The notes beneath the pieces are model-generated. The model had not been told where the DNA came from and made no database searches. It saw only the letters and a list, made by a program, of their open reading frames with translations. From positions 1-42,388 of the forward strand of contig MGSF01000076.1 of assembly GCA_001798715.1 (NCBI GenBank): a DNA stretch of 42,388 nt, read 5' to 3'. This stretch comes from Deltaproteobacteria bacterium RIFCSPLOWO2_02_FULL_50_16 (GTDB lineage: Bacteria; UBA10199; 2-02-FULL-50-16). Position numbers and translations under genes: made by a program. Positions 1 through 4,742 of the stretch are shown here, piece by piece (position 1 is the first letter of the stretch; every line of letters begins with the position of its first letter).

Positions 1-4
1 ACAC
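1..4 (-). CDS. Probable start of elongation factor Tu (gene runs off the left edge)
   Basis: Minus strand reads AAAAGGAGGTTTACC-GTG: strong SD (11-16) and GTG at 4-2. It lies downstream of the Thr-Tyr-Gly-Thr tRNA cluster that classically precedes tufB. Identity is from synteny only. Confidence 0.55.
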
Positions 5-118
5 GGTAAACCTCCTTTTAGAGCCTGTTAGTCTCAAGTCCGTTGAAGGACTTGAGGCGTTACAGGCTTTTATCCCGACTCGTTTCAAAGAAACGAATCG
101 GGGTTAAAAATTAAATTG

Positions 119-222
119 TTACTAACAGTCCCGAAATTGTATAGACATTTGGGAACTGTTAGTATTACAGGACCGGCTGTTAGCCCTATTGGGCTGTCCA
201 TATTATTTCGGTCCTGTTAATA
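119..222. repeat. 104-bp double-hairpin (MITE-like) repeat, copy 1
   Basis: Direct repeat of 1526-1629 with about 5 mismatches. It is made of two TA-bounded inverted repeats: TACTAACAGT...ACTGTTAGTA and TATTACAGGACCG...CGGTCCTGTTAATA. Confidence 0.9.
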
Positions 223-258
223 ATTTAATTCTTCATCTCGTCCCAAATCTATTTTTCT

Positions 259-455
259 GCACCGTTTCGCTCCCGCGAAACGGTGCGGCGACGTACAGTC
301 TCCGCAAACTTAACTCTTATCTTGGTACCAACTCGCTCCCTTCGCGCCTCTGGCGCTTCAGGGTCTCAGCGCTCTGCGCTGGGATCGTTCGTTGGTACAG
401 CACTTTTCTACACTTTGCGGCGACGTACAGTCTCCGCCAAGTGTGAAAAGTGCTG
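259..455. repeat. Hairpin array in the 3' trailer of tRNA-Thr(GGT)
   Basis: Stems at 259-286 (GCACCGTTTCGC/GCGAAACGGTGC), 284-306, 325-398 (branched) and 398-455. GCGGCGACGTACAGTCTCCGC occurs at both 285-305 and 417-437. Confidence 0.85.
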
Positions 456-528
456 AGCCGACACGCGGAATCGAACCGCGGACCTTCTCCTTACCATGGA
501 GATGCTCTGCCAACTGAGCTATGTCGGC
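456..528 (-). tRNA. thrT: tRNA-Thr(GGT)
   Basis: Reverse complement GCCGACATAGCTCAGTTGGCAGAGCATCTCCATGGTAAGGAGAAGGTCCGCGGTTCGATTCCGCGTGTCGGCT folds as a cloverleaf with anticodon GGT and TTCGA T-loop. No encoded CCA. Confidence 0.97.
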
Positions 529-1020
529 GCAAATTAATCTCCTTGCCCCATCTCGTTTCACGAGACGAAACCAGCTCTCGTACGATTTGCGTGCGTTCTC
601 CGAAGGAGAACCCTATAACACCCACTTCCTTACACTGTCCCGTGAAGCCGTTTGGTTTCGACGAGTTCAACGAGGAAGAAACCATTACGGATTCACGCAC
701 CGTTTCGCCCATCGCGCCTCGTATCGCATCTCTGATGCTTCAAATGCACTTGAGCACTGCGAAAGTGCTGGCGCTTCGACGTAGTCGTCCCAGCACTCTG
801 TGCTGGGGTTGTTCAACGGTGCCAGCTTCCGTAAGATTTGCGTGCGTTCTCCGAAGGAGAACCCTATAATACCCACTTCCTTACACTGTCCCGCAAAGCG
901 GGACGCCGGCGTAAAGCCGTCGCAAATTGATCTCCTCGCCCCGTCTCGTGAAACGAGACGGGACCAGCTCTCGTACGATTTGCGAGGACGCAGGATCCTC
1001 GCAAATCAACGGAAGCTGGG
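529..1020. repeat. Nested hairpin/repeat mosaic between tRNA-Gly and tRNA-Thr(GGT)
   Basis: Internal repeats: 528-591 vs 921-984; 584-642 vs 835-893 (59 nt, 1 mismatch); 636-708 vs 1653-1725 (73 nt, 2 mismatches). Segments 822-842, 906-927 and 1007-1019 together reproduce hairpin 1741-1796. Confidence 0.9.
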
Positions 1021-1093
1021 AGCGGGAGACGAGGTTCGAACTCGCGACCCTCAGCTTGGAAGGCTGATGCTCTACCAACTGAGCTACTCCCGC
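1021..1093 (-). tRNA. glyT: tRNA-Gly(TCC)
   Basis: Reverse complement GCGGGAGTAGCTCAGTTGGTAGAGCATCAGCCTTCCAAGCTGAGGGTCGCGAGTTCGAACCTCGTCTCCCGCT; anticodon TCC. Followed by CCC rather than CCA. Confidence 0.97.
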
Positions 1094-1330
1094 AAATCCG
1101 TTCGGTTTCTGCAAGCCTAGCGTCCCGAAGTCAGAGACTTCAGGACCTGATGGGCCAGAGGCCCTGATCCGAGCAAGAAACCGTTACGGATTTGCGTCCC
1201 ACATGCTTCATAATTACAAGCATGTGGGACGCGTGGCCTTCTTCGCGGCACCGATTCGCTCCCGCGAAACGGGGCCTTATTCCGTACGCCTTGCGCCGAC
1301 GTAAAGTCGTCGCAAGGCTACGGAATAAGG
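1094..1330. repeat. Hairpin array between tRNA-Tyr and tRNA-Gly
   Basis: Stems at 1091-1196 (with two inner AGA-loop hairpins), 1194-1232, 1248-1275 and 1275-1330. Confidence 0.85.
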
Positions 1331-1413
1331 TGGAGGGAGAAGGATTCGAACCTTCGAAGGCATACGCCGGCAGATTTACAGTCTGCTCCCTTTGGCCTCT
1401 CGGGCATCCCTCC
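1331..1413 (-). tRNA. tyrU: tRNA-Tyr(GTA)
   Basis: Reverse complement GGAGGGATGCCCGAGAGGCCAAAGGGAGCAGACTGTAAATCTGCCGGCGTATGCCTTCGAAGGTTCGAATCCTTCTCCCTCCA; anticodon GTA, long variable arm. Followed by CCT. Confidence 0.97.
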
Positions 1414-1525
1414 AGCAGTTCGTTAGTTTTGCGGCGATCTTGCATCGACGCAAAACTTATGAACTGCTGGTCCTCAGCCGAAGGCTGAGGGCCCGGAAGT
1501 CAAACGAATCACTCCCCACCAGATC

Positions 1526-1629
1526 TTACTAACAGTCTCAAAATTGTATAGACATTTGGGGACTGTCAGTATTACAGGACCGGCTGTTAGCCCTATCGGG
1601 CTGTCCATATTATTTCGGTCCTGTTAATA
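1526..1629. repeat. 104-bp double-hairpin (MITE-like) repeat, copy 2
   Basis: Direct repeat of 119-222. Confidence 0.9.
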
Positions 1630-1657
1630 GTTAACTTTTAAAAAAACTTTTTTGTCC

Positions 1658-1796
1658 CGTGAAGCCGTTTGGTTTCGACGAGTTCAACGAAGAAAAAACC
1701 ATTACGGATTCACGCACCGTTTCGCTTCCGCGAAACGGTGCCAGCTTCCGTAAGATTTGCGCCGGCGTAAAGCCGTCGCAAATCAACGGAAGCTGG
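1658..1796. repeat. Three abutting hairpins in the 3' trailer of tRNA-Thr(TGT)
   Basis: Stems at 1658-1714, 1714-1741 and 1741-1796, each sharing one nucleotide with the next. Homologous to 641-1019. Confidence 0.9.
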
Positions 1797-1797
1797 G

Positions 1798-1870
1798 AGC
1801 CGACGCCCGGAATCGAACCGGGGACCTACTGATTACAAATCAGTCGCTCTACCTACTGAGCTACATCGGC
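1798..1870 (-). tRNA. thrU: tRNA-Thr(TGT)
   Basis: Reverse complement GCCGATGTAGCTCAGTAGGTAGAGCGACTGATTTGTAATCAGTAGGTCCCCGGTTCGATTCCGGGCGTCGGCT; anticodon TGT. Followed by CCC. Confidence 0.97.
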
Positions 1871-2041
1871 GTGCATCATTTTCCAAATTACTGCACCGCC
1901 TCCTGAAAAAAAATAAACTCTTCCCTCGCGACCGGATCGTTAAAAAAACAAATTGCATCACAGCGACCTAGTCCATTGGAATTATTACAGTCTTCGAGCT
2001 TTGGTAAACCCTTTAATTTTGAAAATCGAAAAAGCCGTGGA

Positions 2042-2070
2042 TATATAATGGCATTCCCAACAATTGTCAA
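2042..2070 (-). promoter_or_regulatory. Putative sigma70 promoter of the tRNA-tuf operon
   Basis: TTGACA-N17-TATATA on the minus strand. Confidence 0.55.
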
Positions 2071-2079
2071 TAAGTTTTG

Positions 2080-2853
2080 TCAAGAAGGTTTGTGGATTTT
2101 TTCCAACAGTTTTAAGGACTTAAAGATCTCGTACATTCCAATGGCCCCGGCGACAGAGGCATTGAGTGACTGAATCCATCCCATCGTTGAAAATGTAAGT
2201 AAAAAGTCACATTTTTCCTGAACAAGTCGCCGAATCCCCTTCCCCTCACTCCCCACGACCAGGGCCACCCGGTCTCCGAATTCTTGCTCGGAAAAATCCC
2301 CTCCCCCCTGGGGCACTAATCCATAAATCCAAAATCCTATTTCCTTCAAAAAATCAATGGTTTGAGCTAGATTTGTGACAGAAACGATGGAGAGGTATTC
2401 GGTGGCCCCTGCCGATGCCTTAACCACTGAGGCCTCCAGGGGTGGGGTCCTTTGAGAAGGGAGGATGACCCAGCGAACCCCAAAACAAGAGGCCGAACGT
2501 AACAAGGCCCCGAGATTTTGTGGGTCTTGGATCTCATCCAATATGAGGATAAAATGGACCTTTTTTTCAACCTTGATGGCCGAGGCAAGATCCTCAAGAC
2601 CGAGTAAAGGACAGGGATCCACTTGGGCCATAACCCCTTGATGGACCTCAATAGGAGATGTCTTCTGGAAAAAAGACCTCGGATACCATTGAAGTGGGAT
2701 GTTGGCCTTAACCGCCAATTTTTCAATCTCCCCATCGATCGCCCCCTTCCCCTTTGACCCCTCCTTCTCTAGTAAGGCTATTTGATAGGTCTTTCGCCGA
2801 CCTGCCCGTAGGACCTCAAGGACAGGATGATATCCTGCAATCCAAGATTTCAT
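2080..2853 (-). CDS. rlmB: 23S rRNA (guanosine-2251-2'-O)-methyltransferase, SpoU/TrmH family
   Basis: Motifs HQGV, LDEIQDPQNLGALLRSA, KASAGA, VGSEGKG, SLNASVA. Confidence 0.92.
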   Translation of the reverse strand: MKSWIAGYHPVLEVLRAGRRKTYQIALLEKEGSKGKGAIDGEIEKLAVKANIPLQWYPRSFFQKTSPIEVHQGVMAQVDPCPLLGLEDLASAIKVEKKVHFILILDEIQDPQNLGALLRSASCFGVRWVILPSQRTPPLEASVVKASAGATEYLSIVSVTNLAQTIDFLKEIGFWIYGLVPQGGGDFSEQEFGDRVALVVGSEGKGIRRLVQEKCDFLLTFSTMGWIQSLNASVAGAIGMYEIFKSLKLLEKIHKPS

Positions 2854-2859
2854 AAATCC

Positions 2860-2976
2860 TATGGTTTATTAACTTTCAATGAGTACAATTTAAAATAACC
2901 AACCATAAGTACCTGCAAAATTGATAAGCAGGCTTTTTATCCGCACTACCCGTACGAATAAAAAGTTGAAATGCTA
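2860..2976. repeat. Dispersed AT-rich MITE-like palindromic element, copy 1
   Basis: TATGGTTTATTAACTTTCA.TGAGTACA...ACCAACCATAAGTA and the terminal AAAGTTGAAATGCTA are shared with 17526-17626. Confidence 0.8.
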
Positions 2977-3013
2977 TATAAAGCCGATGAGGTCCTTTTC
3001 GTCAAGAGGGGAT

Positions 3014-3050
3014 AAAAAAAGCCCTCATCCGGTTAAAGCCAGATGAGGAC
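3014..3050 (-). terminator. Rho-independent terminator after the 111-aa ORF
   Basis: GTCCTCATCTGG/CCGGATGAGGGC hairpin followed by T7 on the minus strand. Confidence 0.75.
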
Positions 3051-3082
3051 TCAAAGGGGCATAGGGAAGGAAATAAAAAAAA

Positions 3083-3418
3083 TTAAGCGTGATGTCCGAT
3101 GTGAAAAAATTCTCTTTTTTGCGCCTCTAAATCAGCCTCAATGTCTACAACAGATTGAGGGGCCTCATTCCACAATTTCTTTCGGGCATGGAAATAGGCA
3201 TCCCGAAGGGCCTCCATCCGAATAGACAATTCCTCTTGTTTCATCAGACAATCCGTCTTTTCATATTCTAATTGTGTATAGGCGTGATTTAAGGAACTAT
3301 TCAACATGATCATCTTGAGATTGGTGTGATGGGTCTTCTCCTCCGCCGAAACAACAATCTTGACGATATGGGTCTCTTTCTCTTCTTCGAGGATGGAGTC
3401 TTTAACTTCGAAATCCAT
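3083..3418 (-). CDS. Hypothetical protein (111 aa, helical/coiled-coil-like)
   Basis: ATG ORF with GAAGGGG SD-like sequence, upstream sigma54 promoter and downstream terminator. Confidence 0.75.
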   Translation of the reverse strand: MDFEVKDSILEEEKETHIVKIVVSAEEKTHHTNLKMIMLNSSLNHAYTQLEYEKTDCLMKQEELSIRMEALRDAYFHARKKLWNEAPQSVVDIEADLEAQKREFFHIGHHA

Positions 3419-3448
3419 AATGTTTAAGCCCCTTCATTAATAGATGTA

Positions 3449-3465
3449 AGCAAACTCCTTGCCAA
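3449..3465 (-). promoter_or_regulatory. Sigma54 (-24/-12) promoter
   Basis: TTGGCAAGGAGTTTGCT has GG-N10-GC. IHF-like site TGATTTCAATATATTACA at 3489-3506. Confidence 0.75.
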
Positions 3466-3626
3466 AACCCCTCTTTAAGTACATCCTCTGTAATATATTG
3501 AAATCATTTGATAATTTACAAAAAACTATCAAATCTCTTAAAAAGGGCTTGAGGGAAATTGGGGGGGGCCATACCCCATTTTGGGGGGGTGGCGCCTCAC
3601 TCAAGGGTCATGATTAAGGGGGAGGA

Positions 3627-4742
3627 CTAAGTGATCAATCGCTTAATTTCGGTCTTGAGACGGGGCAAAATGTCCTCGTAGGAAAAACGCCCTAAGAATT
3701 CATCCTTGCGTTTTAGATTCACAAAGGTAGGGGAACACCACAAACCCAGATCCGCATCATCTGTCTCTCCAGGACCATTCACTCGGCATCCCATGATAGC
3801 AATGGTCAATTTGTGACTTTTGGCAAAAACAGCCATGTCTTTCACCTTCTGAGCCAATTCAACAAACTTCTCATTTTCCACACGGGAACAAGAAGGACAT
3901 GAAATAATATTCAGACCCGCATTCTCATAATAAGAAACCGATCGAAAACGCCCATTTTGGATATCCTCGATGATCCCACGAGCCACATAAATCTCCTGCC
4001 CTTTCTCCTCAAAAGGGACCGTCAAGGAGACGCGGACGGTATCTCCGATCCCCTGAGAGAGAAGCTGCTCAAAGGCAACACGTGTCTTGATCACCCCTTC
4101 CGGAGGCAAACCGGCTTCGGTCACACCCAGATGGAGGGGAACAGAAGGACAGAGGAGATGAAAACGTTTATTGACCGCAACAACCCTGTTGGGATCCGAA
4201 TCTTTTAGGGAAACAAGATAATTTTTAAATCCAAGCTTGTCCAATATTTCACAATTTTCTATGGCAGAACTGACAATGGCCTTTTCATGATCCTTGGGAT
4301 AGCGCTCCAACCATTCGGGGTCCACGGACCCGCAATTGACACCCACTCGGAGGGCACAGTTGTGTGGGGCAACCTTTTCTACAATCCAGGCCACCTTGTC
4401 TTGTTTGCTCTTTCCCTTTTCATGATGATGGAGATGTCCGGGATTATAACGAATTTTTTGGACTAATGGAGCCAGGAATTCTGCTAAACGATAACTTTCC
4501 TGCAAATCAACCACCAAGGGGGTCTTTGCCTCCTCCCTCAATATCTTCAGGGCCTCAACATCTTTCTGACTGTCAATGGCTATGCGAATGAGATCCGCAC
4601 CGGCCTTCTCCAAAATCGCTATTTGACGCCTGGTCCCCTCAATATCCTGCGTCCTGGTCGCTGCCATACTCTGGACCAAGATGGGATTCTGTCCCCCCAA
4701 CTTCACGGATCCTATTTTAATTTCACGACTCTGGCGCTGCAT
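3627..4742 (-). CDS. ispG: (E)-4-hydroxy-3-methylbut-2-enyl-diphosphate synthase
   Basis: Motifs [61 protein letters not shown]. Start set at MQRQSRE, after the pyrF stop; the ORF track extends to 4784. Confidence 0.93.

Follow-up and report, generated by a model that had tools for sequence, protein, structure and literature searches.

To our knowledge, it is unsettled by which route tiny palindromes that carry no genes, such as RPEs and DHEs, enter new and often in-frame sites. Non-autonomous elements derived from IS200/IS605 are known as PATEs. For REP elements, the accessible text of one study offers only models of spread, in which TnpA-REP is predicted to yield excised single-strand circles and tandem units, and it describes IS608-type insertion as preferring the lagging template (PMC3333891). 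Cuts by TnpA-REP are placed at C|T and C|A in the available part of a second study (PMC8266576), and excerpts of a third report palindromes inside other palindromes for some REP families (PMC3733652). Likewise in excerpt, DHEs are called 'potentially mobile' (PMC10085805; PMC4618339) and multicopy intragenic repeats are described for Geobacter (PMC2700814).

The locus analysed here contains a 48-nt cassette that resembles several of these elements. As far as the available portions of the sources go, it has in common with REP/BIME sequences that they are short non-autonomous palindromes with module mosaics, tandem amplification and strain polymorphism (PMC3333891; PMC8266576; PMC3733652), that they make no target duplication and are cut with very little specificity, mainly near C and T, and that some REP families stand within palindromes or in frame in genes. 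Dispersed palindromes lying in frame in unrelated housekeeping genes are also described in the accessible text on Rickettsia RPEs (PMC10969869), and the fungal mitochondrial DHEs are presented, in the parts available, as two adjacent stem-loops which are dispersed and considered mobile (PMC10085805; PMC4618339). With IS608 and the IS200/IS605-derived non-autonomous elements, the cassette shares hairpins at both ends, the lack of a target duplication and precise empty sites.

The tRNA cluster and its interrupted hairpins

The window, by which we mean the whole stretch of DNA analysed (42,388 nt), carries at positions 1-1900 a minus-strand thrU-tyrU-glyT-thrT cluster:

1796 to 1870, minus strand, tRNA-Thr(TGT), thrU
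1329 to 1413, minus strand, tRNA-Tyr(GTA), tyrU, with its own tail module at 1248-1330
1019 to 1093, minus strand, tRNA-Gly(TCC), glyT
455 to 528, minus strand, tRNA-Thr(GGT), thrT

The full CCA is encoded by none of the four tRNA genes, which are separated by spacers of 382, 235 and 490 nt, and a search of 1-3200 with Rfam models found only the four tRNAs at gathering scores. At the contig end, a ribosome-binding-like word and a GTG suggest that a putative tuf gene comes next, a placement taken from relatives, in which thrT is often succeeded by tuf. In relatives, the cluster spacers measure 0-345 nt at 17 of the 19 loci with the cluster, and one spacer of 599 nt holds an ORF; the tail and cassette modules of the window are absent from the cluster spacers of 17 relatives. 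When 40 relatives were compared with the tRNA locus, similarity was confined to the tRNAs and no relative was closer than the same order, so that polarisation of this locus by orthologues failed. A search of plasmids and phages with 690-930 gave no match. We consider it probable that the spacers represent a pile-up of non-autonomous hairpin cassettes over paralogous tRNA-tail hairpins.

Several other features were observed in this part of the window. SNPs at 326, 428, 433, 674 and 802 mark at least two haplotypes of the tRNA locus. Two copies of a further repeat, family A, are present:

1527 to 1627, unstranded, 101-nt TA-flanked MITE-like repeat of family A, with a second copy at 120-220

Family A is a double-hairpin, MITE-like repeat with a TA duplication and more than 20 copies in the genome, some of which carry an insert of about 80 nt; an absent allele of the copy at 1527-1627 is hinted at in three of four metagenome runs, with a side of only 28 nt. 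Positions 2859-2980 belong to another repeat family of about 105 nt and, by eye, seem to hold an extra hairpin of about 21 nt.

The hairpins of the cluster belong to a wider set. Directly after about 17 of the 38 stable RNA genes of the genome (chosen by eye) follow a long bulged hairpin and then a short one, and a profile built on 15 of these tail modules gave 22 matches, second stacked modules included. Since this two-hairpin tail is repeated after many stable RNAs, the interrupted hairpins represent one copy of a tRNA-tail module. The conserved tail may represent a processing signal or an element targeted to tRNAs. The tails after about 17 tRNA and tmRNA genes (e.g., C66:12155, C83:779, C45:51729) have a TTAG/TTAC-like bulge and a divergent sequence, and a tRNA-Met (C46:49684-50300) is followed by repeated pseudo-3'-ends split by D-like pieces and nested 48-nt cassettes.

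The original prediction had described 636-1019, which is the 3' tail of tRNA-Gly (glyT), as a long form of the short 1653-1796, the 3' tail of tRNA-Thr(TGT) (thrU), reproduced with three interruptions. The features involved are the following:

1714 to 1797, minus strand, thrU tail module, the form originally called empty (fold z -11.3)
1653 to 1713, unstranded, third hairpin in the tail of thrU, with a copy at 636-696
529 to 591, minus strand, half a tail module and the leader of thrT
590 to 642, plus strand, first family-D copy, truncated at its second hairpin, with the same left junction as 841-903
636 to 708, unstranded, copy of 1653-1725, joined to the first family-D copy at a 7-nt shared motif
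708 to 814, plus strand, interruption 1, a subfamily-B cassette variant replacing the tip of the short hairpin
720 to 767, plus strand, 48-nt cassette of subfamily C in the triloop of the B variant's first hairpin, CT|CTG
815 to 840, minus strand, one arm each of the short and the long hairpin
841 to 903, plus strand, interruption 2, a 63-nt family-D cassette in the stem of the long hairpin (z -4.3)
904 to 927, minus strand, remainder of the thrU-type long hairpin
928 to 1006, minus strand, interruption 3, an extra tRNA-tail module between 8-nt direct repeats

The short form folds into three hairpins, and the thrU tail module within it consists of a long hairpin flush with the tRNA 3' end and a short hairpin. 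Global alignment of 636-1024 with 1653-1801 reproduces the proposed correspondence, and the agreement of its blocks is far beyond chance: 636-708 equals 1653-1725 with 2 mismatches in 73 positions (blastn E 1.6e-28), 815-840 is identical to 1734-1759, and 904-919 and 999-1023 correspond to 1760-1775 and 1776-1800, respectively. The net additions in the long form are +98, +63 and +79, i.e., 240 nt.

Interruption 1 occupies the predicted place (106 nt, 709-814), but it is not a pure insertion, as it replaces 8 nt of the short form (1726-1733). Within it lies the inner insert of about 48 nt, at 720-767 (721-768 in an equivalent frame). What remains without this 48-mer is a B variant related to 333-390, with a linker longer by 6 nt and a short tail, and this tail is the same as that of the B copy contained in the hairpin of thrT (325-398); because of the common tail, interruption 1 looks transferred between paralogous hairpins. 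At 776-786, the 6-nt gain in the linker forms a mini-hairpin, one of several small hairpin inserts in this genome (6, 18 and 21 nt) whose lengths are divisible by three.

Interruption 2 is present with its 63 nt and can slide by 2 nt, from 841-903 to 843-905. Family D comprises 21 copies, is separate from the 48-nt family and has the same plan as the latter, which starts with C and continues with a hairpin, a linker and a hairpin flush with the 3' end; copies of family D host B cassettes and a 21-nt insert. Since the two D copies of the window have a common left junction, they are most simply explained by a single insertion that was copied afterwards. Among the joints listed in four metagenome runs, none represents an empty allele of the 63-nt site. 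In the D copies on C52, C44 and C39, a 21-nt hairpin is inserted in the first loop. A perfect TATAAT stands at 864-869 on the strand opposite to the tRNAs, and the paralogue at 613-618 is one base off.

Interruption 3 has 79 nt (928-1006) between two copies of TCGCAAAT and is composed of part of a long hairpin, a short hairpin and a spacer. A chimeric second tail module of this kind also follows tRNA-Leu on contig C83. Further copies of the inserted pieces, which the original prediction had placed elsewhere in the array, were found at 584-648 (92%) and 525-591 (87%); the latter is the paralogue of 918-984, with an inverted loop. Interruptions 1 and 3 look like recombination between paralogous tRNA-tail hairpins. 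Of the sequential insertion or recombination events proposed originally, insertion holds for the 48-nt piece, which is the only clean insertion in 636-1019, and probably for the 63-nt piece; for pieces 1 and 3, simple insertion into the 1653-1796 hairpins finds no support.

Metagenomic data provide a view of the alleles. At least half of the words of 200-4200 occur in 8 of 17 runs among those listed, which come from soil and groundwater metagenomes, and none of the runs listed as carriers is an RNA run; the best carrier run may be the source of the assembly. The strain-level polymorphism that had been suggested was found at the inner cassette: a joint that skips exactly 48 nt at 719-768 is present in three of four runs, with a shorter side of 30, 46 and 76 letters. 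Run X1 holds the filled allele of 720-767 (contig 679-797, depth 6.5) together with the empty one (6.9), runs X2 and X5 have the empty allele only (counted as no contig with the window's letters at 744), and run X7 has no cover at 720-767. The empty allele of X5 bears two SNPs.

Interruption 3 was not seen in the four runs, 932-992 is uncovered in all of them, and the filled form is known from the assembly. Simulated 31-mer unitigs for an allele lacking 928-1006 give a piece of 94 nt that begins at 840, as well as breaks at 1789, at 1771 and five letters before 999. All four contig ends predicted in this way occur in the runs, which would thus carry a form without interruption 3; the assembled allele predicts a 715-nt unitig instead, with which the contig ends in the runs disagree. 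Simulation and runs disagree for one piece, which was simulated as 691-797 and observed as 679-797. These observations speak for an assembly artefact, specifically at interruption 3. Against it stand the join word of 8 nt, which is too short for a k-mer mis-join, and the stretch 918-984, for which no identical source was found within the genome and which is off 525-591 at 9 of 67 positions. The uncovered stretch itself proves nothing, as all four runs also leave the tyrU tail (1176-1297) without cover, and there are contigs that span interruptions 1 and 2 (679-797, 768-869 and 840-927). An artefact is barely credible as a rival account of the locus and close to negligible for the finding as a whole; for interruption 3 taken alone, it keeps a minor, appreciable chance. 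A deletion that produced the shorter form reads as well as an insertion for interruption 3 alone and is there a serious, if tentative, possibility.

A family of 48-nt double-hairpin cassettes

Searches with 712-775, 333-390 and 1120-1180 led to three subfamilies, C, B and E, which have one layout. Besides the C copy at 720-767, the window contains the following members:

338 to 384, plus strand, 47-nt subfamily-B cassette at the tip of the short hairpin (325-398) in the thrT tail
1124 to 1171, minus strand, 48-nt cassette of subfamily E

The order is a 5-6-nt tail, a 5-bp hairpin with a C-NNN-G triloop, a 7-8-nt linker and a second hairpin flush with the 3' end; the ends are fixed and the length is 47-48 nt. 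As the original prediction had envisaged, collecting the genome copies defined the exact ends, and it revealed no target duplication (overlap of 1 nt at most). The catalogue holds 75 double-hairpin copies of 47-48 nt, obtained by iterative removal and rescanning (80 rows, from which 5 partial or mis-framed ones were dropped); the variant at 708-808, which the script did not peel, was added for counts based on 76 copies. The first base is C in 74/75 copies of this genome, and C or T in 28/28 copies from other genomes in a hand tally. Among 43 aligned copies, two-sided changes occur in 14 of 15 pairs, a level reached by 0/500 shuffles, although the test leans in favour of the structure because this was derived from the same, author-chosen copies. 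Taken alone, the C copy of the window folds no better than shuffles (z -0.8). The alignment of these 43 copies shows variable tails and YCAR linkers and no GTAG, and the cassette has no terminal inverted repeats. Copies are single, head-to-tail or nested, with no inverted dimers, and at four sites head-to-tail copies are preceded by a partial extra 5' copy of 8-14 nt. The 48-nt family is apparently a gene-less selfish repeat that is still moving.

Many cassettes lie within genes. After four short or N-containing ORF calls had been set aside, 26 of the 75 copies were located within 20 long ORFs, of which 15 could be assigned to named families, including UvrC, NirB, MetH, Acs, HolA, RlmN, ClpB and RluA. 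UvrC has 22 extra residues that are lacking in 12/12 relatives, encoded by an 18-nt hairpin whose tip holds a 48-nt cassette; four cassettes account for 64 additional residues in RlmN, and ClpB has 16, in both cases lacking in 9/9 relatives, and the insert of Acs is lacking in 8/9. Since the inserts are missing from the proteins of relatives, insertion is the derived state in genes. Because its length corresponds to 16 codons, the cassette is tolerated in frame; the 48-nt length is found in 21 of 26 ORF copies vs. 31 of 49 outside, as plain counts, and one of the five in-ORF copies scored as 47 nt is a framing artefact. Within genes, 8 copies are in sense and 18 in antisense orientation, and they are read in several frames. 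In uvrC (C62:43082-43147), the 18-nt hairpin is a circular permutation of the first 18 nt of the cassette.

These comparisons bear on the reverse reading, in which the long form came first, and hairpin-assisted deletion between microhomologies gave rise to the short form and the empty alleles. Such deletions would be eased by the flanks of 720-767 (a 1-nt repeat, C) and of 928-1006 (8 nt) and by host stems that bring the ends together, and in the four runs, empty alleles are more common than filled ones. Yet the inserts in genes are missing from all or nearly all relatives, the relatives' cluster spacers hold no such modules, empty hosts outnumber filled ones and the same cassette occurs in unrelated hosts; moreover, deletion cannot create a family and explains only a given empty allele. 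We regard this reading as very unlikely. At 720-767, it is the family evidence, and not the data from the runs, which favours gain over precise loss.

Outside this genome, 92 other genomes of the phylum were searched with a covariance model, which detected the family in 8, with one match being weak, and a pattern search detected it in two Elusimicrobiota records, i.e., in a second phylum. E cassettes in other genomes occupy diverse host repeats, and genome G091 has 11 copies, 4 of which are inserted in the first triloop of a further copy. The C-subfamily pattern had 0 matches in the genome-contig collection and 4 in metagenome contigs, all 99-100% identical to this genome, and the E pattern had 0 viral matches. 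A pattern for the left end only, run over 93 genomes, gave whole cassettes and no autonomous form among the loci inspected. In three relatives (L099, L101, L102), the E cassette lies in the tip of a CCCTCACCCC-type repeat, which we take to be DUF559-associated. The E cassette of L210 (G091:C138:7380-7700) has a 24-nt insert in its second hairpin, which also occurs in the hosts of L202 and L203.

Target sites and routes of insertion

The original prediction had expected that junction rules could be read directly, and the 48-nt copies do allow this. The cut is followed by C at 41 of 60 distinct sites (24.5% genome-wide), and the site is CT|C at 17 of 60 (1.7% genome-wide); beyond N|C and CT|C, no fixed target word of 4-5 nt was found. 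The 1-nt ambiguity of the junctions follows from the C that usually stands on both sides. In other genomes, a cassette with an initial C or T and an end flush with the second stem restores the host repeats. A frame shifted by 1 nt would give C|T at 24/60 and C|A at 11/60 sites, but the cassette would not start with T or A, and the flanks in relatives favour the other frame. The target C|T with a cassette starting after the C was rejected: host repeats are restored only with the first base included (7 copies; two others, L107 and L110, are ambiguous or opposite).

For the 48-nt insertion, the succession from empty to filled forms stands on exact empty and filled alleles in the population and on exact empty sites elsewhere in the genome. 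When rejoined flanks were matched with up to 2 mismatches in 18, one host repeat had 28 empty and 3 filled sites and a second one had 18 and 9, respectively, of which several filled sites may stem from one event. A strict hairpin loop, closed by at least 5 pairs, surrounds 15 of 58 distinct sites, as compared with 7% of random sites, in a test that misses stems with G-A pairs; with this share, targeting of tips is a preference and not a rule. Although copies cover 0.2% of the genome, 15 of 76 lie inside another copy. Of these, 13 have the same orientation and use the same triloop bond, the other 2 lie at a stem base in opposite orientation, and two reach three levels deep. Unrelated families of 18, 21, 48, 63, about 85 and about 100 nt nest alike. 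Because CT|C is the triloop of many hosts, including both triloops of the cassette itself, each insertion adds two targets, which leads to Russian-doll nesting.

A combination of cassette pasting and recombination of tail modules is a fairly likely best explanation overall, and the identity of the pieces as mobile cassettes plus recombination is very probable. For the pasting, we would place an enzymatic single-strand route slightly short of even. The cassette would be excised or copied as a single strand, probably as a small circle, and a trans-acting strand-transfer nuclease (HUH-like, in a peel-and-paste style) would join it to extruded hairpins. The head-to-tail copies that carry a partial extra start are consistent with an intermediate that is circular or rolling. 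Together with the exact ends, the missing target duplication and the weak C/T specificity, they recall the circle and tandem models for BIMEs (PMC3333891) and the C|T and C|A cuts of TnpA-REP (PMC8266576). The 63-nt D piece may have been pasted once in the same way and then copied, and interruptions 1 and 3 would result from template switching or unequal recombination between near-identical tRNA-tail modules at microhomologies of 7-8 nt.

No mobilising enzyme was found in searches of this genome and of the Y1 loci of relatives. The genome has one Y1_Tnp HUH gene, whose ends are unrelated to the cassette, and a cassette-like flank was present at 0 of 17 Y1 loci (16 from four cassette-bearing relatives and the one mentioned), in genomes that are incomplete. 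The inverted ends of this sole HUH gene (L021, C87:2527-5859) are of the GGGGTCAG type, and the gene is enclosed by two copies of a direct repeat, about 230 nt of upstream coding sequence. Two GIY-YIG matches correspond to UvrC and to a small gene without repeats, one DDE_Tnp_1 gene has no cassette flanks, and DUF559, RVT_1, the IS110 Transposase_20, 23S_rRNA_IVP and DDE_3 had no match in this 92%-complete genome. The orientation of cassettes shows no leading or lagging bias (34/69), as judged by the GC3 skew of contigs as a proxy, with 6 copies on unskewed contigs left out.

The missing partner gene and the lack of a replication-strand bias agree with a process that needs no transposase. Here, a structure-specific nuclease of the host or of a selfish element would nick hairpin tips, and repair would switch template onto another copy of the cassette, whose ends would be set by structure, with polymerases stalling and restarting at stem bases. 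At several sites, the flank to the left of the copy agrees over 4-12 nt with the 3' end of the cassette itself, several unrelated families nest alike and the E cassette is found in diverse host repeats, as such a process would predict. It has more difficulty with ends that are exact to the base across three subfamilies, the genomes of several families and a second phylum at a length of 47-48 nt, and with the many sites that share 1 nt of homology at most with the cassette. We consider repair-driven capture unlikely, though a substantial rival, and favour enzymatic single-strand pasting over it.

Group II intron reverse transcriptases jump templates on one base pair. A template-jumping reverse transcriptase, primed by a match of 1 nt, could also copy RNA of the cassette into nicks, in keeping with the 1-nt overlap at junctions, the head-to-tail multimers and the association with tRNA operons. 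Such RNA-templated insertion is highly improbable given the absence of RVT_1 matches noted above, the presence of both orientations in genes and 5' ends among which non-templated or truncated ones do not stand out. The most specific form of the enzymatic route, a minimal and currently active transposon class whose cassettes are moved by an undescribed structure-reading enzyme with a single cutting site in C-NNN-G triloops, is rather doubtful.

Comparison with described repeats and implications

The cassette works like REP/BIME, RPE and DHE elements but lacks defining features of the first two. In contrast to REP/BIME sequences, its palindromes have neither GTAG nor CGTC at their foot, its two hairpins are in direct order instead of forming REP-iREP dimers, about a third of its copies (26/75) are in ORFs, its first base is not the T of a C|T cut, and no tnpA-REP flanked by cassettes was found among the 17 Y1 loci; recursive insertion into its own triloops is a feature of the cassette that the consulted portions of the REP literature do not describe. 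RPEs are about 150 nt long instead of 48, and unlike them, the cassettes encode no single conserved peptide, as they are read in several frames and both orientations. The cassette family further differs from RPEs in nesting within itself and in the demonstrated segregation of an empty allele. The likeness to DHEs is one of described architecture and mobility; unlike DHEs, the cassettes are located on a bacterial chromosome, in frame and self-nested. Compared with the IS200/IS605 group, the cassette is much smaller and has no target word of 4-5 nt, no lagging-strand bias and no partner TnpA. It differs from classical MITEs in lacking terminal inverted repeats and a target duplication, whereas the neighbouring family A shows a TA duplication. 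In open-licence literature text, we found no description of the 48-nt family or of triloop self-targeting; the repeat list in the supplements of the Geobacter study, whose main text was the part available, may bear on the novelty of the family (PMC2700814).

The family offers exact ends, a target preference that is repeated in an independent genome, insertions polarised by proteins and one site that segregates within a single sample. In this organism, repeat DNA is seen to lengthen essential proteins and tRNA precursors stepwise. If a triloop-cutting enzyme of the kind considered above exists, a cassette with two triloops would build its own targets and grow recursively, and protein loops would be extended in steps of 16 residues, of which RlmN would have gained four. 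The cassette would then parasitise other repeats in at least two phyla, and it would provide the first tractable handle on the movement of RPE- and DHE-like elements.
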